Below, in pieces: positions 867-64,000 of a stretch of DNA of 64,000 nucleotides (the stretch's first letter is position 1; the number at the start of each line of letters is the position of its first letter). Under the pieces are notes generated by a model. That model saw only the letters and a program-made list of their open reading frames with translations. It was not told the DNA's origin and made no database searches. The translations under genes and the position numbers were made by a program. This DNA comes from Squalus acanthias (Eukaryota): positions 22,196,001 through 22,260,000 of the forward strand of contig CM059429.1 in assembly GCA_030390025.1 (NCBI GenBank). Reading direction: 5' to 3'.

Positions 867-1520
867 TTTGTGAATGGTAGGTCATGTCTGACTAATGTAG
901 TTGTGCTTTTTGAGGCGATCACTGACAAGGTAGACAGGGGAGTCTTTATAGATGTTGTTTATATGGACTTTCAGAAGGCAATTGATAAAGTTCCACACAA
1001 GAGATTATTAGCAAAAATGAGAGCGCATGGAATTGGGAGTAACCTTAGGATATGGGTTGAAAATTGGTTGGGAGGTAGGAGACAGAGTGCACAGATTTAC
1101 AAAAATGCTATCTGGGCTAAAAGGGTTAAATTATGAGGACAAGTTGCATAAAGTTGTGTTGTATTCCCTTGAATTTAAAAGGTTGAGGGGTGATCTGATT
1201 AAAGTGTTTAAAATTATAAAGGGATTCGATAGGGTAGATACAGAGAAGCTATTTCCTCTGGTGGGGGAGTCCAGAACGAGGGGGGGCACAATCTTGAAGT
1301 TAGAGCTGGGCCATTCAGAAGTGAAATCAGGAAGCATTTTTTCACCCAAAGCATAATAGAAATATGGAACTTTCATCCCCAAAGGACTGTGGAGGCTGTG
1401 AATTGAAATTTTCAAGACTGAGATTGCTAGATTTCTGTTAGGTAAGGGTATCAAGGAACATGGATCAAAGGTGGGAAAATGGAGTTGAGGTGCAGATCAG
1501 CCCTGATCAAATTAAATGGT
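867..1520 (+). mobile_element. CR1 LINE, 5'-truncated and internally deleted; left part
   Basis: RT motifs GRSCLTN..DVVYMDFQKAIDKVPHKRLL, then the C-terminal LYSLEFKRLRGDLIKVFKIIKGFDRVD..LFPLVGESRTRG, then the CR1 3' UTR up to AAATTAAATGGT. Confidence 0.93.
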
Positions 1521-2571
1521 CAAAAGTGAGAAGTCGCACAACACCAGGTTATAGTCCAACAGTTGTATTTGAAATCACAAGCTTTCGGAGCTGCTGACGA
1601 AGGAGCAGCAGAAGCAGCAGAGTGGTGGTCTCTGTGAGCAGGAAGAGGAGAAGCAGAAGGAGACCAGGCAGCAGACCACCACCAACAACCAACTACAACT
1701 GAGGTGCCTGGAGAGGGAGGACAGGAGAGGAGAAGGATAAGAAGGGAAGGCCAAGGCCATTAACAACAGAGGAGAGGCCTTTCCACACTGCCTCCTCAAT
1801 TGGCCTCCATTTTAGGAGAGGGAGAGAGGGGAGAAAAACATCACAAACATCCATCATCTGTTTGGAAGGAGGGAGGAAGGAAAGAATATCAGCTACAGGT
1901 GGGTGTGATTCTGGGGCACTCTCCCAGAGACTTTGTTTTGTAGGTGGGGGGAGGAAAGAAGAAAAGAAGAAGGCCGGAACATCTAAGGGGTGTGTGTGTG
2001 TGTGGCTTTTGTAAAAACTAGGCCGCACACACCATATTAAACACCCCTTTCCCATTGCCTGACCTGGGACAGCTGGAGCTGCCTAGGTGAAGTTCCCCAA
2101 TTAATTATATCCAATTGGGCATCGTTAAGACCTGGTGCAGGACTGAGCCTGGGCATCTCCAGCTATCCCAGGTGAAGACATCTTCTCCCCCCACCAGAAG
2201 ACCACCACCAAAGACTTTTTTACATCGGAGAGTGCACCCCCCTGCCAACACCCACCCACCCACCATCCTGAGTGGCGACCCTGCCCTTGCGGCTTCCCTC
2301 CTTCCCACCCCCCTCTCTCTCTCTCTCTCTCTTTGTCTCTTGTCTCTCTCTGCCTCTCTCTCTCTAAGAGGCACCTCATCTATTTTTAATTAAGTACCCA
2401 TTGAGCAGAGGGGAGAAGGCCCCTCTCCCAATTCAATCAACTAAAGGGAGAGGTGTGCCTTCAATTTAAGAGCTCCCTCTGCTCAGGGGAAAACCAAAAA
2501 AAAAACCGAGGCCATTAACACCTTCAGGCCTGTGACTTGGGGTGAGTGTAGCCCTTAAAGAACCCTCCATT

Positions 2572-4722
2572 ATGGCGAGTACATCTTCGTCGGTGGCGGG
2601 GGCAGCGAGGACGTACGCGAGCGTGGCAGCCGCGGCCACGGCCGCAGCCACGAGTCCTCCTGTTACCCCGTCACCTTTTACCCTCCTTACGAGGAAGAAT
2701 GGGGTCAAGAGCTACACTCACCCCAACATGACTATAGAGGCGTGCGTTAAAGCCATGGCTGGGGTTGTCGGCCCTTCAGCCATCGTCGCCGCCTCTAAAA
2801 TGTACGGCAAGGCTGTGTTCTTCCTGGGGTCGGAGCGGGCGGTGTCCCTGGCCATCGAGAAGGGGCTCACCGTGGGCGGGACCTTCCTGCCGGTGGACCC
2901 CCTTGAGGCCACCGCGCAAAGGATTGTGGTCTCCAACGTCCCGCCCTTTGTTCCGGGTGAGCTCCTCCTCCCCCACCTACGTCAACTGGGGGAGGTGAGG
3001 TCGGGGATCACACCCATCCCGCTCGGCTTCCGGGAAGCCAGCCTTCGGCACGTCTTCTCCTTCCGGCGCCAGCTTTTCGTCCGGCTGGCGCGGGAGGAGG
3101 ACGCGGACGGCGCGTTCACGGTGCTCCACGGGGGGACCGCCCACCGCGTCTTCTGGACCTCGGACGGCGCGCGGTGCTACGCCTGTAAGGAGGTGGGGCA
3201 CGTCCGCAAAAACTGCCCCGCCTCCAAGGCCGCCACGACACCTGGCGCGGCCGGGGTTGGCGCCGCCGCCCCCCCTCCCCCTGATACTGTCCGCGCGTCG
3301 ACGGCGACGGATGCGCGGTCGAAATCGGAGGCCAACGCCACCACGGCCTCCGGCGGGGAGGAGGGAGAGCGTCCGGGGGGAAGGAAGGCGCGTAGGAAAA
3401 ATAAACACATAAGGGCGGATCCCCTCGCGGAGGAAACATCTGAATTGGCCGAACTCACGCCCGAGTATATCGCGGAGTTGGTCGGGACGCATGAGACTGG
3501 GGGGGTCCTCGTGCCCGGGCCCGTGACCGCAACCGCCGAGGCGGCTAAATCAAGACCTGCGGCCGGGCTCGGGCCCGAGGGGCCCAAGAAACCCAGTCGT
3601 CGGAAGGGGGCAGAGAGGGAGGCCCCAGCAGACATGGAGGCCTCCCCCTCTCCGGGCCCCAACTTGTTAAAAAGAAAGCTCCGCCCCCAGCAGGAGGACT
3701 GCGAGGAGGAAGGTCCCTCCGCAAAAGGGGGGCAGTCGCCCGCCGCGGGTGCTGCGCCCCACCCCACCACCGTCATCGTCGCGCGCGATCGGCAGGGGTC
3801 GTCTGTCCCTCGGGAGGGTGAGACAGACGAGTCTGTCCGACCTGTGCCTCCCGGGGATGGGGAAGAGACCCTGCCCGTGGGGGGGGGCGCGGAACAACCC
3901 GCGGAGGGAAATGTAGTACCGGAACCGTTGCTCCTCGCCGGGTCGGGCGTCCTGGGGACTGGGGCGGGCGAGGCCAAAGAGGCTGAAGCCGAGCCCGCCT
4001 TTTATAACCCAGACATCTCCCAGGGACTGCTCGACCTGGTGGAGGAGTGTAGCAATCCCCAGCCTGCTGGGTCGGAGGTTGGTGGCGGGGAGACGGAAAG
4101 CCCCCTGACTCCGTCTCTGTTGTTGGCGCCGGACGTGCTGGAGGAATTTGGGATTATTTTCTCCCCGGTTTCTCCGGTCGCCCCGGCGCCTGAGGCGGGG
4201 GGGGGCCCCGAACCGCCGCCGCCGCCTCCCGGCCCGGCGCCCCTGAAGGAGCCCAGGGTGGACTCCTCTGCCACCGATCCTGGGGGTGGGATCGTGACGG
4301 AGGCGGGGCCGGCCGGTGCGGCCGAGCCGTTCGCTGCACCCCGTGCGACGGACGGGTCGGCCGTCGGTGACGACCTCCCGGAGGAGGACGGGGACTCGGT
4401 GTTGGGCAACGAGGACGATTTGGAGTCCATCGGCAGCGAGGTGATGGACGCCCTCGTGCCCTTCACTGACTCTCCCCTCATCCCCGTAGGGGAACTCCGG
4501 GATTTTATGGCCGTGAGCCAGGGTCGTCACAAGAAGATCCGGCTGGCCCTCGACAAGTGGTCGGAGCTGACGCTGCTCGTCGTGTCCGTCCGCGCCGCCG
4601 TTAAAATCATGGGCGCGGACAAGGACGTTGACCGGCTCGAGCTGCGTCGGCTCAAGACGTTCCACACTGGGCTGCTGAGGGAGTGGCGGTCGTCAGTGAC
4701 CGCCCTCCCTCCCCTCCGTTAG
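2572..4722 (+). CDS. Tx1 ORF1 gag-like nucleic-acid-binding protein, about 716 aa from the first ATG
   Basis: YASVAA motif, VG..IVAASKMYGKAVFFL, RIVVSNVPPF, LRHVFSFRRQ, zinc knuckle CYACKEVGHVRKNC, a long Pro/Glu/Ala-rich linker and a C-terminal helical region. The ATG at 2572 lies within track ORF 2542-4722. Confidence 0.93.
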   Translation: MASTSSSVAGAARTYASVAAAATAAATSPPVTPSPFTLLTRKNGVKSYTHPNMTIEACVKAMAGVVGPSAIVAASKMYGKAVFFLGSERAVSLAIEKGLTVGGTFLPVDPLEATAQRIVVSNVPPFVPGELLLPHLRQLGEVRSGITPIPLGFREASLRHVFSFRRQLFVRLAREEDADGAFTVLHGGTAHRVFWTSDGARCYACKEVGHVRKNCPASKAATTPGAAGVGAAAPPPPDTVRASTATDARSKSEANATTASGGEEGERPGGRKARRKNKHIRADPLAEETSELAELTPEYIAELVGTHETGGVLVPGPVTATAEAAKSRPAAGLGPEGPKKPSRRKGAEREAPADMEASPSPGPNLLKRKLRPQQEDCEEEGPSAKGGQSPAAGAAPHPTTVIVARDRQGSSVPREGETDESVRPVPPGDGEETLPVGGGAEQPAEGNVVPEPLLLAGSGVLGTGAGEAKEAEAEPAFYNPDISQGLLDLVEECSNPQPAGSEVGGGETESPLTPSLLLAPDVLEEFGIIFSPVSPVAPAPEAGGGPEPPPPPPGPAPLKEPRVDSSATDPGGGIVTEAGPAGAAEPFAAPRATDGSAVGDDLPEEDGDSVLGNEDDLESIGSEVMDALVPFTDSPLIPVGELRDFMAVSQGRHKKIRLALDKWSELTLLVVSVRAAVKIMGADKDVDRLELRRLKTFHTGLLREWRSSVTALPPLR

Positions 4723-4747: not shown

Positions 4748-7700
4748 ATGAAGATAACCATAGCCAGCCTCAACATCAACGGCAGCAGGGAGGCGCGCCG
4801 TAGATTCAATAACTTCTCGGTCCTTCGGGACGGGAAATATGCGGTGTGCTTCCTGCAAGAAACCCACACCGTTCCGGGAGACGAGGCCACGTGGCTCCTG
4901 GAGTGGCAAGGAGGGGTCAGCATGAGTCACCTCTCCAACAATTCCTGCGGGGTGGCTGTCTTGCTGGCCCCGCATTTTCAGCCGGAGATCTTGAGGGTCA
5001 AGGAGCACGTGCCGGGCCGCTTGCTCCAGGTCACTGTTCGCCTGGGAGGCGTGCCGCTCCATTTAGTGAACGTGTACGCCCCCCGGACCGGTGCGCAGCA
5101 AGTGCGCTTCTTCGGAGAAGTGTCCGCTCTTCTGGGCTCCATCGACGTGGGCGAGTGCGTCATCCTCGGGGGGGATTTCAATTGTACCCTCGAGGCGCGG
5201 GACCGGTCGGGTCCCCCGCGAAGCCCGGCGGCGATGGAGAAGTTGCGGGACCTGGTCGGGTCCTTCGACTTGGTGGACGTCTGGCGAAATCTCCATCCCG
5301 ACTCCAGCGCCTTCACGAGCGTGAGGTCTGGAGGAGGAAGGTCCAGAATCGACCGCCTTTACATTTCCCGGGCGTACGTCTCCTGCGTTCCGGCGGCTTC
5401 CATGCGGCCGGTGCCGTGCACGGACCACCACCTGGTGTGGGCGGAGCTCGCTCCGCTGCGCGCGCGGGGGGGGTCCGCGTACTGGCATTTTAACAACCTG
5501 CTGCTGGAGGACGCGCGGTTCCGGGATTCGTTTCGCCGGTTCTGGGCCGACTGGAGAAGGAAGCGGGGAGGCTTCCCCTCCTTGAGGCTATGGTGGGACG
5601 TGGGCAAGGCTCACGTCCGCGTCTTCTGTCAGGAGTACGCGAAGGGGTCGACCAAGAGGCGGGAGGCCCGGGTCGGGCGATTGGAGAAAGAAGTGCTCGA
5701 CCTGGAGTCCCGTCTCGGTCAAGTCGTCGAGGACCCGGCCCTGCGGAAGGTGTACGAAGAGAAGAAGGGCGCGCTGAAGGACCTGCAGCTGGTCGGGTCC
5801 CGAGGCGCGTACGTGAGGTCGCGGATCCAGTTCCTGCGGGACCTGGACCGCGGCTCCCCCTTCTTCTACTCGCTGGAAAAAAGACGGGGGGTCCGTAAGC
5901 AGCTCTTGGGGCTGCTGGCCGACGACGGATCTCTGGTCTCGGATCCGGAGGGCATCAGCGCGGAGGCCCGGGCCTATTACGGGGCTCTGTTCTCTTCGGA
6001 TCCGTCCAGCGAGGATGCGCGCAGAGTTTTGTGGGAGGACCTGCCGAAGGTCGGCCCGGAGGGCGCCGAGAATTTAGAAGCTCCGCTAAGCCTGGCGGAG
6101 CTGACCGGCGCCCTGCGCCAGCTCTCGAGGGGCAAGTCCCCGGGGCTGGACGGGCTGACCGTGGAGTTCCACAGGGCGTTCTGGGACGTCTTGGGGGACG
6201 ACTACGCGCGGGTCCTGGGGGAAAGTCTGGCGACCGGGGAGATGCCCCTCTCTTGGCGCAGGGCGGTCATCGTCCTGCTGCCCAAGAAGGGCGATCTCCG
6301 CCTACTTAAGAACTGGCGCCCGGTCTCCCTCCTCAGCACGGACTACAAAATTTTCGCCAGGGCTATGTCTGCTCGCCTTGGCACCGTGCTGGCCCGCATG
6401 ATCCACCCCGACCAGTCCTACACGGTCCCGGGCCGGAGTATCCACGATAACATCCATCTGGTCCGGGACCTGGTCCACCATTCCCAGAGGGCTGGTCTGT
6501 CGGTCGCCTTCCTTTCCCTGGATCAGGAGAAGGCGTTCGACAGGGTGGATCACGAGTATCTTTTCGGGACTCTGCGCGCATTCGGGTTCGGGACGCATTT
6601 CGTCGCCCGGATCCGACTTCTGTACGCCGCCGCGGAGTGTCTCATTAAAGTTAACGGGTCTTTGACGGCGCCCCTTCGCTTCGGGAGGGGGGTGCGTCAG
6701 GGATGCCCCATGTCCGGTCAGTTATACGCCGTTTGCGTGGAGCCTTTCCTGCGCCTCTTGCGGAAGAGGTTGACGGGACTGGCTCTGCAAGGGCCGGGCG
6801 TGGAGGTGGTCCTCTCGGCTTACGCCGATGACGTGCTCCTCGCGGTCACGGATCCCGTCGACTTGCGGAGGATGCGAGAATGCCAGCAGATTTACTCGGA
6901 CGCATCCTCCGCCAAGATCAACTGGGAGAAATGTTCTGGACTCCTGGTGGGCCCATGGCAGGTGGACTCCCTGCCGGAGGAGTTCGGGCCTTTCGCCTGG
7001 AGCACCACGCACCTCCTCTACCTGGGAGTCTACCTCAGCCCGGCCGAGGACGCCTGGCCGGCGAACTGGCAAGAGCTGGAGGCCAAAGTCACCGCTCGCC
7101 TAGGACGCTGGACAGGACTGCTCCGAGTGTTGTCCTACAGGGGTCGAGCGCTGGTCATAAACCAGCTGGTGGCCGCCATGTTGTGGTACCGGTTGATCAC
7201 TTTGATCCCTCCCCCTGCGTTTGTCGCCAAGATGCAGAAGAAGCTCGTCGACTTCTTCTGGGACAAAAGGAAGCACTGGGTCTCTGCCGCGGTTTTGAGT
7301 CTCCCGCTTAGGGAGGGCGGTCAGGCGCTGGTGTGCCTTCGCACCCAGGCGGCGACTTTCCGTCTTCAGACGCTGCAGAGATACCTGTACGTGGAGAATC
7401 CTCCTAGGTGGCGTGCGCTGGCGACGTATTTCTTCCGCCAGCTGCACGGCCTCAATTACGACACGCAGCTCCTGTTTGTGAGAGTGGGTGGCACGCGTGC
7501 CAGCCTGCGGGAGCTGCCTGTCTTCTACCAGGAACTGCTATGGGTTTGGAACAGCGTCGCCTCCGAGCGCAGTTCTCCCCCGTCAGGAGCGGCGGCCGTC
7601 CTTCGGGAGCCGCTGTTCAGGAATCCGCACCTCCACGACCGCGGGTTCGGCTGGCTGGCGGAGGGCAGGGCTGTGCCCGGTAAGGTGACCAGAGTCGGGG

Positions 7701-8647
7701 ACCTGCTCGATGGCGGAGGAGCGGGCTGGATGGCGCCGGAGGAGTTGGCGAGGCGCATGTCTTGGGTCAACGTCCGGCTCGCGGTCAAAGCCATCGAGTC
7801 GCTAAAAGTGGCACTGGGCCCCGTCTCCACTAGGTGTGTCGAGGAGGCTCAAGCACGTGGGGCGATCCCGTCCGAACTGACCCCCGTTCGGACGGAATTC
7901 CTTATCGGCGCCCGGCCCCGAATCCTCCCTCGGGAGCCGCCGCCTCACCACTTGAGCCTTCTCGGAGAAATGCCCTCCGTGCCCTTTCAATCCGCACGGA
8001 GGCGTTTCCTGTACGGGCTGCTCCTGCACACTCTCCACTTTGCCATCTTCGTCTGCCGTCCGGACACGCCTTGGCGTACCATCCTGCCGTCCGGCGGAGG
8101 CGAAGGTCCCCATTGGAAGGCTCTCTACGCGGGAGTCTTCCCTTGTTCTATTGGGGACTTGGCCTGGAGGGTGTTGCACGGAGCAGTCCCGTGCAATAGG
8201 ATTTTAAGTAGGTTTACGGACTCCCAGGCTGCTTGTCATTTTTGCGGCCTGGAGGAGTCCGTTTATCACATTTATGTTGAATGTGAGAGGTTGCAGCCCC
8301 TCTTTCATTATTTGAAGGGGCTGCTCCTCAATTTCTGGTTGCACTTCAGCCCCACGCTCCTGATCTACGGTCACCCGGTGCGGAGGGGACAGGGTAGGTC
8401 GGAGGACTTCCTCGTAGGACTGCTCCTGGGCCTGGCCAAGAAAGCCATTAATTGGTCCAGGCAGCGGGCGGTCGAGGGGGTCGTTCGGCCCGATTGCCTG
8501 CCTCTCTTCCGCGGCCATGTTCGCGCCCGGGTGGCCCTGGAGATGGAGCACGCGGTGTCCGCCGGCACGCTTGAGTTTTTCCGCGACCGGTGGGCGCCGC
8601 GGGGACTGGAGTGCATCGTCACCCCGGACTTTCAAATTTTAATTTGA
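4748..8647 (+). CDS. Tx1 ORF2 endonuclease/reverse transcriptase, about 1299 aa
   Basis: APE motifs SLNING, FLQETH, NVYAP, GGDFN, SRIDRLY, TDH. RT motifs KSPGLDG, NWRPVSLL..DYKI, SLDQEKAFDRVDH, GVRQGCPMS and YADD (6821-6832). C-terminal CHFCGLEESVYHIYVEC. No stops or frameshifts. Confidence 0.97.
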   Translation: MKITIASLNINGSREARRRFNNFSVLRDGKYAVCFLQETHTVPGDEATWLLEWQGGVSMSHLSNNSCGVAVLLAPHFQPEILRVKEHVPGRLLQVTVRLGGVPLHLVNVYAPRTGAQQVRFFGEVSALLGSIDVGECVILGGDFNCTLEARDRSGPPRSPAAMEKLRDLVGSFDLVDVWRNLHPDSSAFTSVRSGGGRSRIDRLYISRAYVSCVPAASMRPVPCTDHHLVWAELAPLRARGGSAYWHFNNLLLEDARFRDSFRRFWADWRRKRGGFPSLRLWWDVGKAHVRVFCQEYAKGSTKRREARVGRLEKEVLDLESRLGQVVEDPALRKVYEEKKGALKDLQLVGSRGAYVRSRIQFLRDLDRGSPFFYSLEKRRGVRKQLLGLLADDGSLVSDPEGISAEARAYYGALFSSDPSSEDARRVLWEDLPKVGPEGAENLEAPLSLAELTGALRQLSRGKSPGLDGLTVEFHRAFWDVLGDDYARVLGESLATGEMPLSWRRAVIVLLPKKGDLRLLKNWRPVSLLSTDYKIFARAMSARLGTVLARMIHPDQSYTVPGRSIHDNIHLVRDLVHHSQRAGLSVAFLSLDQEKAFDRVDHEYLFGTLRAFGFGTHFVARIRLLYAAAECLIKVNGSLTAPLRFGRGVRQGCPMSGQLYAVCVEPFLRLLRKRLTGLALQGPGVEVVLSAYADDVLLAVTDPVDLRRMRECQQIYSDASSAKINWEKCSGLLVGPWQVDSLPEEFGPFAWSTTHLLYLGVYLSPAEDAWPANWQELEAKVTARLGRWTGLLRVLSYRGRALVINQLVAAMLWYRLITLIPPPAFVAKMQKKLVDFFWDKRKHWVSAAVLSLPLREGGQALVCLRTQAATFRLQTLQRYLYVENPPRWRALATYFFRQLHGLNYDTQLLFVRVGGTRASLRELPVFYQELLWVWNSVASERSSPPSGAAAVLREPLFRNPHLHDRGFGWLAEGRAVPGKVTRVGDLLDGGGAGWMAPEELARRMSWVNVRLAVKAIESLKVALGPVSTRCVEEAQARGAIPSELTPVRTEFLIGARPRILPREPPPHHLSLLGEMPSVPFQSARRRFLYGLLLHTLHFAIFVCRPDTPWRTILPSGGGEGPHWKALYAGVFPCSIGDLAWRVLHGAVPCNRILSRFTDSQAACHFCGLEESVYHIYVECERLQPLFHYLKGLLLNFWLHFSPTLLIYGHPVRRGQGRSEDFLVGLLLGLAKKAINWSRQRAVEGVVRPDCLPLFRGHVRARVALEMEHAVSAGTLEFFRDRWAPRGLECIVTPDFQILI

Positions 8648-8715
8648 TTTATTAAGTTTCATTTCAAGTTTTAATTGATTTACAGTAAATTTGCGTTCTG
8701 TCAAACCAAAAAGAT

Positions 8716-8825
8716 CAACACCAGGTTATAGTCCAACAGTTTTATTTGAAATCACAAGCTTTCGGAGCAGCCGCTCCGAAAGCTTGTGATTTCAAATAAA
8801 ACTGTTGGACTATAACCTGGTGTTG
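8716..8825. repeat. Perfect inverted repeat, 53-bp arms with a 4-nt loop
   Basis: 8716-8768 is the exact reverse complement of 8773-8825; the loop is AGCC. Confidence 0.97.
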
Positions 8826-8889
8826 TGCGACTTCTCACTTTTGTCCACCCCAGTCCAACACCGGCATCTCCGCATCAAAATTAAATGGT

Positions 8890-49426: not shown

Positions 49427-52400
49427 GGGCTCGATTTTAATTCCCGAGTCGGGTTGCATGGTGGGCGGGTTCGGGAGCCGCTTCCAGCGGGAACAGCTGC
49501 AGAGTTGCAATTTTTATTCAAGTACCTTGTTAATTTCATGAAGGCGTGCTGGCCAGTCCAATGAGTGGGATCGGGTCGGCTGGCCACCTCTGATGACGTC
49601 ACAATAGCCGCTCCTTTTAAAGCGGCCATGCAGCCTGAGCCTTTCCATTGTGGTTTCCTGCACTTCTTTTCAAAGCTATGGCTTCTTCCAGAGGCAAGGC
49701 AGCTCCTTGGTTTAATGATGACTCCCTCCAAGTTCTTGTGGATGCTGTCAGAGGGCGCAGGGAGATTCTCTTCCCTCCTGATGACCGGAGGAAGCCCCCC
49801 TCAGCAGACCAAGTCAGCCTGGCTGTACATTGCTCAGGAGGTGAGCACAAGGTTCATTTATGCACAGTCATGGATCCAGTGCCGCAAAAGGTTTAATGAT
49901 CTTGTGAGAACATCAAAAGTGAGTATCCCATCTCACTTGCCTTCACTCTGCTTCCCTTCTCTTCTCATCACCTGCACTCTGCGTTGTAAGCCTCCTCCTT
50001 CACATCCCACCTTACTCTTACTTCCCTTGCACCCTTTCCTATCCATCTCTGTCTCTGCACTGAATCACTTCAGCATCCTGCCTATGCACCCCTTAGACTC
50101 GCTCTCACTGTTGTGCAGTGACAACAACTAACAATGCACAGGGAAATACTTCCTCTTGGCACCTTACCCCATCTTTGTCTCACTCAAAGCTTCTATGGTA
50201 GGGATTAATCACACTCACTCCATCACTGTGGCTGAAACATCGCTTGTGTCCCTCCTTGCAGGAAAAAATAGCCCACAATAAGAGGGAGAGAGCAATGACT
50301 GGAGGAGGAACACCTACCCTTGCAACATTGACCAGTACTGAAGAGGCAGCAAACTATATTGCTGGAGGTGGCGAGGACCTGTACGTGGGCAATGGAGAGA
50401 CGGGCACACTAGAGGAAGCTGGTGACATAATAGAGTTTCATCACTCTCCGAAAGCAATGGAATATGATGCTCATAGAGAATCGCTTTGTATCATCTGCTC
50501 AAAAGGATCTGTCTGCTACATCAATATCAGATGTCTAATTCAAGCCTTTACTCTCCCACAGGACCATCGAGCGCCCCCCTCCCCACAATCCAGGACGAAG
50601 AACCAGACAACTCCTCAGAGGAACCTGAAGCCTCTGAGGGAGCAGCGTCACCAGGACTCAGCGCACCCAGCACCAGCGCAGCAACGCACCCCTCGGTGGG
50701 GCCATCGTGCGTTAGAGTAGTGTTGCCACCTGGTCGATCACAGTGCACAAGTGAGCATTAGCAGATGGTGGAGATAGTGACAGCAGTGGAGAGTCCTCGG
50801 CGGAGGTCGCAGGACTCCTAGCTCTGCTGAGCTGCATGCAGACGCTGTGCCTCTGGGGCCATCCAGAAAAAGAGCGGTTTGTGAAATACAGGAACAAGTG
50901 CAGGTGTCTCTGGAAGGGTTTGCCTCCAGGGTTAGTGCGAGTGTGGAGAGAATGGAGGAATCCATCTGTAACATCAACACTGCCGTGGTGGAGGCAATGG
51001 CGCATGAAAGCACCACCATGGATAGGATGGCAACCTCCGTGGAAAGGCTGGCTACCTCAGTGGAAAGGATGGCTACGGCCATGGAGGAAATAAATTGCCA
51101 GAGTCAGGAAAACATGGTGACTGTTCAGAATAGAATGACATCTCTGGAGGAGCGATGGGCAGCTATTGAGCAGAGAGACCAGAGCTTCATGGACGTCCTT
51201 TTGAGGAGGACTGCCAGTGCAGATATGGGTCCTCATGGCCCCCCTGAAGTGCAGCAAGGTGCTCTCCTGCCACTTGCCAGCACTGAGGTGCAGCTGACCC
51301 ATGAGAGGGATGTTGTTGGCAGGACAGAAGGAAGTGTGGGCTCCTCTCAAAGCACTCGCACGACCATGCCAGAGACCCACTTTGCAGAGACAACTGAGAT
51401 GGCCGTTTCAGCTCCTGCACAGCCGCAGGAAGAGCAGGCTGTTGCAGAGCTCCCAAGCCCAGAGGACGCCTGCCAAAAGGCGTCTAAGCAGGCGCAGCAT
51501 CCTAGTCAGCAAGGTGCCTCTACATCTGCTGAAGCCACAGGGGAAGCACCATGTAGAAGCACTCGTAATAGAAAGATTAAGCACCTATAGTCACAAGGGG
51601 ATTCACTTGGGTGCTACTTCTTTTTTTATGACTCTTGCTGGTATATTTTGTCATGTGTTAAAGATAAATTATGTCAAACAGTTGATTGTGTGGCCTCTGT
51701 GTTCTGGGAAATGGCAAAAGCACATTGAGGGCTCAGGGCGACTTACATTTGTAATGCTGATGGTAAAAGTGATAGGAAATAAGCGGGTATAGCAGAGATG
51801 AAGTATGACGTTGGACAAGTGTCGCCTGCAATTACAGAGCCATATGGTAGCCACCTATGGTCGAAGGGTAAGCTTATGGTAGTGCGGCATGGCAGTGTGC
51901 ATACCCTGGTTGAAGGCAGCAGTGAACTGGAGGGATGCTGCATTGGTCACAACAGGGCATGCAAGGCTCCCCTCGTTCTCCTCCTATTCCTCTTCTCAGG
52001 AAGATCTGTGGTGAGCCATGCAGCTGCTACTCCCCTGATTGAGGACCAGGATGAGAGGACATAAATGTTTCCCATCCCCTTGCTATAGATTTCATTTGAG
52101 TTAACAATCTTGCAAGCGCACAGTTGAAGTGGCCTGAAATATTTCCATTCATGACACACTGCAGATGGGTGTCAGCTTGAACAGTCAGAAGGTCAGTAGA
52201 TGTGCAAAATGTTATCCCATACCTACAACAGCAAAGTTGTTGCATTTGAATGTCAGCCATGTTTCAGGGGCGCTTTTAAAGCGCTCCACCAATGAATACA
52301 AATCATGTCCTCCAGCAACTCATCTCCTTGAACCTGGCCTGTTTCTGACTAGTCAGGAAACAGGAGCCAGAAGCAGGAAAATGGGAAACCACTATGAAAA

Positions 52401-62349: not shown

Positions 62350-64000
62350 ATGATTGTCATGCCTTCAAGTGCAGATATTATGGACAACTCCCACAGCCAG
62401 ACTGTCCTTTGTTGCTTGAATGAACAACGGACCAAAGGTGTCTTCTGTGATGTCACCATTGTTGTGGAAGACACCAAGTTTAAAGCCCACAAAAATGTCT
62501 TGGCAGCATCCAGCGTTTACTTTAAGAACCTTTTTTCAAGCCAGGAGTTATGGTTGGTAGGCCATATCCTGGAACTGCCTGACTTCAAGGCAGATGTGTT
62601 TGCAGAAATACTGCATTTCATCTACAGTGCAAAGGTGGTTGTCAAAGGGTCTGAGAGAGTAAAAGATCTTATCGATGCTGGGAAAAGATTAGGGATATCA
62701 TTTTTGGAAAATCTGATGCCCATCCCTCAGCAACATGTTGGATCTGTAGATACTCTATACAGCTGTTCACCTAATTCTTCTCAGTCAGTTTCTCCTGCAT
62801 CTTCCCTCTCCTTGTCAACATGCCTTCAGAATCTCAAAGCAGAAGTCTGCAATTCTGCGAGTGACAAAGGCAGTGAAGATTTCCATTTTGTAAATGGACC
62901 CCGAATCACAAATGCATTTTCAATTTTCGACATGCAGGCTGGCACTGACTTGTATTTTCCAGTTGACTTAACAGCTAATGTCAACAAAAAAGCAATAGAA
63001 TCTGATAAGCTGTCCATGGTATGTGTTACCCAGGATGCAAGTGGTGTACAGCAGATGCCTGCTCATACTTTCACTGAACATTCCTATGCTGTATCTTCTT
63101 CTACAAAAGATCAGCAAAATGTTGATCCTTCTTATGGTCTTCATCAAGTACAAGAACCTATGGAAGAAAATGAAAAGCCTTTATGCAACATTAAGAGCAA
63201 TACTGCTAGCTCTGGGGCTATACAGGATCTACACTTGGAAGACCAAATTTGCAAAGCCTCCCAACCACTGTACACTGCCAGCTCAACTGGCTTTAAGGTT
63301 CTACGATTTAACTTGAATGCATTACAAACCGCAAATGATAGCAGCCCAGTAAATTTAGTGCCAGTTACAGGCCCATTAAATGGACCTACTGTGAATACCG
63401 AGGAAACTGTAGGTGGAGTCACTGATGCAGAGAAAGGTTCTCCTCCTATGGAAAACATGAGCAAATCGGTGCCTAATGCTGTTTGGTCTGAAACGGTGCC
63501 AGCGATCACGCGTCAAACTGCTTACAGCTGTAAATATTGCCCACGGTCTTTTAGCACTCGAGTATCCTTGAATGTCCATTCCCAAATCCACACAACGCTT
63601 TTAGAAAAGCCCCTATCTTGCAGGCATTGTGGTAAACCTTTTGTTCATCTGAAGAGGCTGCAGACTCATGAGCATCTTTGTAGAGGACCAGGAACAGTTG
63701 TGTCTGATCGTGAGTCAACCGATGAGCAAGTGGAAAATTTTTCCAGCGACACTGAAGTTGCCAGTGGCGAGGAAGATCCAAATTTGATTTCGCATGCTTT
63801 GGAACTGGAGAATTCCAACACGTGCTCGGTGAATTTGGTACGCTCAAGAAGAGGCAGCAGCTCACCAGAACCAGAACACTTTGTAAAAGTTGTCGAGGGA
63901 CACATTTTGTATTTTTGCAGTGTTTGCAAGCGTTCCTATGTAACTCTGTCCAGCTTAAAGAGACACGCCAATGTTCATTCTTGGCGGAGAACCTATCCCT
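62350..64000 (+). CDS. zbtb38: Kaiso-family BTB/POZ C2H2 zinc-finger protein, most like ZBTB38 (CIBZ); partial, runs off the window
   Basis: Acceptor TTTTCTTTCCAG immediately before the ATG, then 550 open codons: MIVMPSSADIMDNSHSQTVLCCLNEQRTKGVFCDVTIVVEDTKFKAHKNVLAASSVYFKN (BTB), NGPRITNAFSI, PVDLT (CtBP-type motif, 62959-62973), EHSYAVSS, fingers CKYC..H..H and CRHC..H...C, and CSVCKRSYVTLSSLKRHANVHSWRRTYP (first methyl-CpG-binding finger). ZBTB4 and ZBTB33 are paralogs that fit less well. Confidence 0.9.
   Translation, partial: MIVMPSSADIMDNSHSQTVLCCLNEQRTKGVFCDVTIVVEDTKFKAHKNVLAASSVYFKNLFSSQELWLVGHILELPDFKADVFAEILHFIYSAKVVVKGSERVKDLIDAGKRLGISFLENLMPIPQQHVGSVDTLYSCSPNSSQSVSPASSLSLSTCLQNLKAEVCNSASDKGSEDFHFVNGPRITNAFSIFDMQAGTDLYFPVDLTANVNKKAIESDKLSMVCVTQDASGVQQMPAHTFTEHSYAVSSSTKDQQNVDPSYGLHQVQEPMEENEKPLCNIKSNTASSGAIQDLHLEDQICKASQPLYTASSTGFKVLRFNLNALQTANDSSPVNLVPVTGPLNGPTVNTEETVGGVTDAEKGSPPMENMSKSVPNAVWSETVPAITRQTAYSCKYCPRSFSTRVSLNVHSQIHTTLLEKPLSCRHCGKPFVHLKRLQTHEHLCRGPGTVVSDRESTDEQVENFSSDTEVASGEEDPNLISHALELENSNTCSVNLVRSRRGSSSPEPEHFVKVVEGHILYFCSVCKRSYVTLSSLKRHANVHSWRRTYP

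Follow-up and report, generated by a model that had tools for sequence, protein, structure and literature searches.

A Tx1-type LINE in Squalus acanthias with a long structured leader that pairs into ORF1

The element and its insertion target

The window analysed here, a stretch of 64,000 nucleotides from the genome of Squalus acanthias, contains an intact non-LTR element in which ORF1 and ORF2 are both open (Table 1). The ORF1 product shares 44-58% identity with proteins of sturgeon and turtle, and its zf-CCHC match, at 20.4 bits, lies just below the Pfam cut-off of 20.8. ORF2 matches Exo_endo_phos, RVT_1 and, below its own cut-off, zf-RVT. The element thus has the traits of the Tx1 clade: an APE-RT ORF2, a separate ORF1 with a CCHC knuckle, and a target preference with a TSD. 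It is a Tx1-type, target-specific LINE, where the clade name is provisional and follows the architecture.

Table 1. Features of the element, its leader and its target, in window coordinates.
Feature	Position	Strand	Remarks
Left part of palindromic host repeat (insertion target)	1517..1538	+	inverted arms, shared left flank
5' TSD of about 16 nt, up to 24 nt at L023	1539..1554	+	repeated at 8716
Target-derived, inherited 5' element sequence	1555..1609	+	unlike the 3' flank at the same locus, common to copies
First hairpin (1622-1631/1673-1682), lineage-restricted	1622..1682	+	pair probability 0.99
Main nested rod	1700..2378	+	no AUG in 681 nt
GT/CA arm	1971..2060	+	1971-1974/2057-2060, 1985-1993/2041-2049, 1996-2008/2020-2032
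25-27 bp arm, most conserved module	2062..2173	+	alignment of 38 copies
Hairpin 2096-2102/2113-2119	2096..2119	+	specific to youngest subfamily
Three-segment hairpin	2401..2486	+	
AGGCC/GGCCT hairpin, variable loop	2509..2531	+	
Clasp helix, 5' strand	2537..2556	+	19/20 complementary to 2707-2726
ORF1	2572..4722	+	716 aa, CCHC knuckle
Clasp helix, 3' strand	2707..2726	+	ORF1 codons 46-52
ORF2	4748..8647	+	1299 aa: APE endonuclease, reverse transcriptase, zf-RVT
3' UTR, short	8648..8715	+	
3' TSD and rest of palindromic target	8716..8847	+	

The family is very young and has recently been very active. We searched the 3.7-Gb genome for copies and found that all 150 ORF1 matches scored, out of 1797 candidates, are identical over 176 residues. 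Likewise, 39 other copies of the UTR are 94-97% identical (40 of 1510 candidates were scored), and many of these lie about 7.17 kb apart. A 26-mer from the UTR end has 1069 exact matches and a 25-mer from the 3' end has 2073. This suggests that about half of the copies reach the UTR, a crude estimate from two patterns that differ in subfamily range. The UTR end is retained in about 1,000 copies, and a pattern from the 5' side of the rod gives a count of 466, which is uninformative since most young copies differ at 1873; in 20 of 29 young copies the base at this position of helix 1864-1874 does not pair. A sturgeon-like ORF1 pattern had no matches.

All 30 loci compared are inserted at one and the same site. 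Twelve lie in a palindromic repeat and 18 directly behind another copy, whose 3' end precedes them; the former twelve have the left flank seen at the window's copy. The inverted arms of the target are 80 nt long (1517-1596 and 8768-8847), and a core resembling a minimal hammerhead sits at the centre of the repeat, which we take to be Penelope-like. This assignment draws partly on the hammerhead-like core (excerpts of PMC4209133). Rfam gives no confirmation of it; the Rfam matches are all sub-threshold, most of them to miRNA models on the palindrome. Each insertion probably brings a new target with it, which would explain the tandem arrays.

The 5' ends of the copies carry sequence inherited from the target. 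At L009 and L010, element sequence joins right after the 5' TSD, and at L023 the 5' and 3' flanks are alike for the first 24 nt only. Roughly 40 bases that follow the TSD are target-derived yet inherited, because they are unlike the 3' flank at the same locus. A descriptor scan places half a hammerhead core, target-derived and without stem II and GAAA, at 1594-1600. Targets and 5' ends differ between subfamilies, and the domain is the same from 1700 onward.

Within the young family (L001-L030; window 1539-1615) there are at least four distinct target/element 5' junctions, pointing to repeated capture of target sequence at the 5' end. Subfamily B (L031, L055, L061, L067, L068) has units of about 150-200 nt before the domain, repeated in some copies; these are either target-derived or promoter monomers like those of mouse L1.

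The leader fold and its conservation

The leader forms a nested fold that is larger than previously described. All 11 helices listed in a sequence-only reading of this DNA do pair at the coordinates given there, nine of them with Watson-Crick pairs throughout; helix 1996-2006/2022-2032 includes a single G-U, and in the 25-bp helix 22 pairs are Watson-Crick and one is G-U. That reading confined the domain to 1864-2485. The domain exists, and its true extent is wider, running from 1700 to 2378 and then from 2401 to 2531. The list of helices was also incomplete, as it missed 2537-2556/2707-2726 around the ORF1 ATG, a helix that we call the clasp. In the rod, the outer helices (1700-1709/2369-2378, 1710-1720/2353-2363 and 1816-1831/2310-2325) enclose those beginning and ending at 1864/2305, 1898/2256, 1916/2235 and 1943/2195.

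The arm at 2062-2173 includes a tandem purine-purine loop (2089-2090/2145-2146), a 5-bp helix (2091-2095/2140-2144) and a distal hairpin (2120-2123/2134-2137) whose AAGAC loop is conserved. CTGA..TGAAG motifs had been described as bracketing both strands of its long helix. The distal bracket corresponds to an internal loop of the tandem purine-purine type, which is conserved. Most of the proximal bracket extends the helix, and it is fully Watson-Crick in subfamily B. The recurrence of AGGCCATTAACA at 1754 and 2509 also holds in the window, with nine of 29 young copies differing at 1757. The AGGCC/GGCCT stem at 2509-2531, with 215 of 220 cells paired, is preserved.

Folding exceeds what shuffled sequences achieve. 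Region 1850-2500 has an MFE of -267.8 kcal/mol, which gives z -9.0 in a comparison with 20 dinucleotide shuffles. It might be objected that the pairing only reflects purine-rich and pyrimidine-rich halves; this objection fails, because block shuffles that preserve the gradient fold worse. With shuffle blocks of 100, 50 and 25 nt, z is -8.8, -11.6 and -7.7 for 1864-2305 and -6.6, -6.2 and -5.9 for 2395-2490, and none of the 30 shuffles folds as well in either region at any block size.

The stems are conserved across related subfamilies. Divergent relatives were collected with a codon pattern that excludes the young family, which gave 208 ORF1 matches, 70 of them taken (64-94% identical to the window), and a search with the most distant copy added 12 further old copies. 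The stem/loop analysis comprised 74 sequences, with 5'-truncated or interrupted copies left out. The alignment shows conserved stems and loops of variable length and sequence. Ten of the 11 earlier-listed helices have 85-97% of cells paired in 44 older copies, in which the outer helix 1700/2378 is paired in 262 of 325 cells. The remaining one, hairpin 2096-2102/2113-2119, is real in the window but is paired in only 71 of 236 cells (30%) of these 44 copies. Paired cells amount to 100 of 120 in the first hairpin (1622-1682), 228 of 259 and 430 of 451 in the GT/CA arm helices, and 457 of 472, 242 of 253 and 325 of 340 in the three-segment hairpin.

Of 16 lineage representatives, 13 have a significant core fold (z -3.6 to -11.7; better than 15/15 block shuffles). 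The cores of the three most distant, decayed copies fold no better than shuffles (z -1.3 to -1.7). The lengths of the outer purine and pyrimidine arms show no positive correlation (rho -0.49, n 17).

Eight older copies from several subfamilies (L033, L048, L065, L066, L075, L080, L084, L094) carry MITE-like insertions at one site in the rod, at the position matching window 1931. This suggests a sequence-specific MITE hotspot, presumably Harbinger-like.

We show that paired sites evolve slowly. On internal branches, changes number 203 of 23193 at paired sites and 477 of 17615 at unpaired sites; on terminal branches the corresponding counts are 300 of 22706 and 386 of 16919. Paired sites are thus slower by about threefold on internal branches versus 1.7-fold on terminal ones (Fisher p 1.3e-7). 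Variation at pairs is also biased. At the 156 pairs that are Watson-Crick in the window, the variants that 9 or more of 55 sequences have in common comprise 13 G-U and three A-C (p 0.011), or 13:1 without the unconserved hairpin 2096-2119, and G-U exceeds A-C at every sharing threshold (35:21, 23:9, 16:5, 13:3, 8:2). The long arm, aligned over 38 copies and 36 pairs (L036, L040 and L094 left out), has 91.7% of its cells paired, and slid registers pair at most 43.5%. Double changes occur in eight of its 36 pairs, which 10 of 500 shuffles reach, and in 21 cells, which none of 500 reaches, in both cases against a control that ignores relatedness. With stems conserved, internal-branch change slow and variation biased towards G-U, the leader has very probably been selected at the RNA level, as the sequence-only reading proposed for this Tx1-type 5' UTR.

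Formal covariation is weak to moderate. The covariation check suggested with that proposal gave no pair at E<0.05 in a phylogeny-aware, R-scape-like test of 158 pairs in 55 sequences (L036, L037, L040, L071 and most young copies left out); the best values were 0.15-0.26. Power is low because the G-run and CACCC-repeat helices misalign easily and most pairs are invariant. Counted as tree events on internal branches, Watson-Crick pairs changed to G-U and to A-C in a ratio of 37:27 (p 0.13), or 23:20 in the 11 earlier-listed helices alone; the ratio is 30:17 (p 0.04) only after post hoc removal of three helices. The keep/break ratio does not differ between internal (58/81) and terminal (76/143) branches (p 0.22).

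These results bear on whether the conserved blocks are instead internal Pol II promoter DNA (GA, GT and CACCC boxes), with the pairing a relic of an old fold-back duplication. Most pairs never vary, a pattern that constraint on the sequence by itself could produce, formal covariation falls short of significance, and both strands fold with similar energy (sense -317.5, antisense -304.6 kcal/mol). However, promoter DNA does not account for the sense-strand bias of G-U over A-C among lineage-wide variants, the double changes in the long arm and the clasp, the A/C-rich variable loops, or the position of one clasp strand in coding sequence. We therefore regard this as an unlikely origin of the pattern. 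It is less likely still that the rod only compacts the RNA or shields it from 5' exonuclease and dsRNA sensors through short, interrupted helices in which the purine and pyrimidine tracts are hidden. No uninterrupted helix is longer than 16 bp, a length below that which dsRNA sensors usually need; but so generic a role would permit free compensatory exchange, and the stems keep their sequence.

The clasp, the AUG-free leader and ORF1 translation

Inside the clasp (16-20 bp) lie the AUG of ORF1 and its codons 1 to 45. Thus, a long-range helix joins the leader and the first ORF around the start codon, as in leaders of the retroviral type. Over 16 bp, 663 of 689 cells are paired in the 44 older copies, and the helix is worth -34.1 kcal/mol versus -21.7 for the best alternative partner upstream. 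An A-U to G-C double change that is synonymous in ORF1 occurs in two lineages (L063/L066 and L047/L049), and a third lineage has the G-U intermediate. Internal third-position changes number three in six clasp codons, against 34 in the nine codons before the clasp and 30 in codons 54-59; measured against the downstream codons of ORF1 as a whole (157 changes in 120), the clasp codons show only a moderate slowdown. The protein segment that they encode is variable in the sturgeon and turtle homologues. In the context of the AUG at 2572, position -3 is a purine and position +4 is G.

A second in-frame ATG at 2728, two bases past the 3' strand of the clasp and with A at -3, is nearly invariant and could be the start of a shorter ORF1p.

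The leader is depleted of AUG. Its 981 nt (1591-2571) contain no ATG against 9.9 expected, and none of 2000 shuffles lacks ATG. The depletion persists against block shuffles of 20-100 nt (4.9-9.0 expected), and the rod alone has none where 4.4-7.5 are expected. ATG is the most depleted of the 64 trinucleotides in the leader, its complement CAT occurs 18 times, and neither ORF1 nor ORF2 has an ATG deficit. Forty older copies together hold 29 ATG against 343 expected, counts that share ancestry and are not independent. The leader lacks ATG in 10 of 14 lineage representatives; in some older subfamilies ATG is present in the target-derived 5' part. Loss of AUG is expected in a leader that ribosomes scan, not where they enter internally or jump. 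The AUG-free leader therefore points to ribosome scanning and argues against an IRES or shunt.

An IRES or ribosome shunt could be needed if tandem and host-repeat copies are read through from upstream. Read-through transcripts are plausible, given that 18 of 30 copies lie directly behind another and that the 5' ends carry target sequence, and a rod of about -317 kcal/mol would be a large barrier to scanning. Leaders of this kind tolerate upstream AUGs in the bypassed region, however, so that no AUG loss would be needed there, yet the rod has no upstream AUG anywhere inside it. In addition, an Rfam search of the UTR gave no IRES family at E<=5. The IRES-like function that had been put forward for the domain is thus disfavoured, and we consider it, like a shunt, quite improbable.

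We tentatively favour a sense-strand RNA structure of short helices whose most likely role is control of ORF1 translation, a reading that we hold with somewhat less than even confidence. Ribosomes would be loaded close to the 5' end and then move through the rod by scanning, with initiation dampened. The clasp (2537-2556 with codons 46-52) would have to open 16 nt before AUG 2572, and ribosomes elongating in ORF1 would cross its other strand and hold it open. When ORF1 translation falls, or when ORF1p builds up and chaperones the RNA, the clasp could close and enclose the AUG. The RNA would then be committed to RNP assembly and target-primed reverse transcription, with the invariant arm at 2062-2173 as a likely protein-binding handle. 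The geometry of the clasp suggests a switch analogous to HIV-1 U5-AUG.

A bolder proposal is that a vertebrate LINE has evolved a retrovirus-like leader of kilobase length, in which the clasp couples ORF1 translation to the commitment to copying and the invariant arm is recognised by protein. We consider this conceivable, though doubtful. If true, it would mean cis-recognition at the 5' rather than the 3' end and a switch mechanism for APE-type LINEs, and it might account for the large proportion of insertions that are full-length and site-specific.

The main rival is a structure that serves chiefly as a scaffold for the RNP and for integration, binding ORF1p/ORF2p in cis and helping to complete reverse transcription and form precise 5' junctions, while translation merely tolerates it. 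The stems and some loops are near-invariant in sequence, as expected of protein contacts, and the counts of UTR-end and 3'-end matches (1069 versus 2073) hint at many full-length insertions. Published excerpts offer precedents: the R2 protein binds 5' and 3' regions of R2 RNA (PMC5814959), and a 5' pseudoknot is needed for reverse transcription of Ty1 (PMC7969010). However, a scaffold alone leaves the helix across the start codon unexplained, and the domain was preserved through changes of target and 5' end. As the principal function it seems rather unlikely, although a scaffold role is compatible with translational control.

It is very improbable that the leader is a new self-cleaving ribozyme whose activity would release the element from upstream transcripts. 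Other non-LTR elements have 5' HDV-like ribozymes (excerpts of PMC5814959), and the fold here includes a junction with conserved unpaired bases. Nevertheless, the Rfam search gave no family at its cut-off, ribozymes included, but only sub-threshold matches. HDV-like ribozymes are nested double pseudoknots (P1-P4) with a catalytic C in J4/2; a loose HDV descriptor, used without a positive control, gave no match, and the hammerhead scan found the half core at 1594 only, with no stem II plus GAAA. Moreover, where an HDV-like ribozyme would leave a precise 5' end at its cleavage site, the 5' ends here vary between copies and include inherited target sequence from upstream, which cleavage is said to prevent. 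As this inherited sequence lies 5' of the domain and the Rfam and descriptor searches were negative, the catalytic function once suggested for the domain is unsupported.

A spliced ORF2 mRNA was considered and rejected. It had been prompted by a consensus-like donor in the 5' strand of the clasp and an acceptor-like ORF1 stop. None of six genomic matches to the donor followed by other bases is a splice junction (the pattern covers only exons starting GT), and the donor is spanned unbroken in contigs of two presumed-RNA runs, in which rare forms are lost. A contig fork at 4748 is accounted for by 257 genomic matches that have another base before the ORF2 ATG. Summed contig depth in the presumed-RNA run X9 is 862-2066 over 1627-2007, in the 5' half of the leader, versus about 43 over ORF1; this excess could come from short derivative transcripts or shared simple repeats.

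Comparison with known systems and further observations

Structured 5' ends of retroelements are already known, and what is new here is the unusual size, the lack of AUG and the helix into ORF1. How LINE RNA switches from translation to copying is, to our knowledge, not settled. The LINE RNA structures that we found in the literature are 3' tails or small 5' ribozymes. Literature searches on Tx1, with most subscription journals and Repbase outside their scope, gave papers on targets, 3' tails and other clades. They gave no published description of a Tx1 5' leader of this kind, which Repbase entries or supplements may nonetheless contain.

The palindromic, apparently Penelope-related target is unlike those of other Tx1 LINEs. 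According to excerpts of PMC4494074, Tx1L, Keno, Kibi/Koshi and Tx1-Mar share ORF1 plus an APE-RT ORF2 and a specific repeat target, and Tx1-clade LINEs likewise show tandem insertions around the TSD; these excerpts contain no structured 5' leader. In human L1, a leader of similar length (about 900 nt; 913 nt as reported) precedes ORF1 and is reported to be scanned cap-dependently (excerpts of PMC6769788); the leader here differs in forming one nested rod with long-range helices, one of which extends into ORF1.

The likeness to HIV-1, an unrelated class of retroelement, is one of layout. U5-AUG is likewise a long-range pairing between leader and first ORF, tied to a switch between translation and packaging; there the start-codon region itself pairs, whereas in the present leader a domain of 150 nt surrounds the AUG (HIV-1 from excerpts of PMC3794615). 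Ty1 RNA also has a 5'-terminal long-range structure, but Ty1 is an LTR element with a pseudoknot (excerpts of PMC7969010), and the present leader is modelled without one. R2 and L1Tc similarly have a structured non-LTR 5' end, possibly co-transcribed; their HDV-like ribozymes are double pseudoknots of about 77 nt that give a precise 5' end (excerpts of PMC5814959), unlike the leader described here, with its length of about 1 kb, lack of an HDV match and ragged 5' ends.

The family provides discrete helices that can be mutated and for which compensatory variants exist in nature, within an intact element that has many near-identical copies. As a site-specific LINE of which about half of the copies apparently reach the 5' UTR, it is also of interest for retrotransposon-based gene insertion.

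Several minor observations concern other copies and the rest of the window. The target of an older subfamily (L042, L073, L090) starts with the same eight bases as the 3' strand of the clasp. At L054 and L086, the 3' end of a copy is joined exactly at the position matching window 2712, an apparent insertion into the ORF1 of another copy. Short ORFs at 49628-51792 resemble what we take to be the remnant of a Harbinger-type Myb/SANT protein. Finally, an open ORF of at least 550 aa at 62350-63999 looks, by inspection, like a host gene with BTB plus C2H2 zinc fingers.
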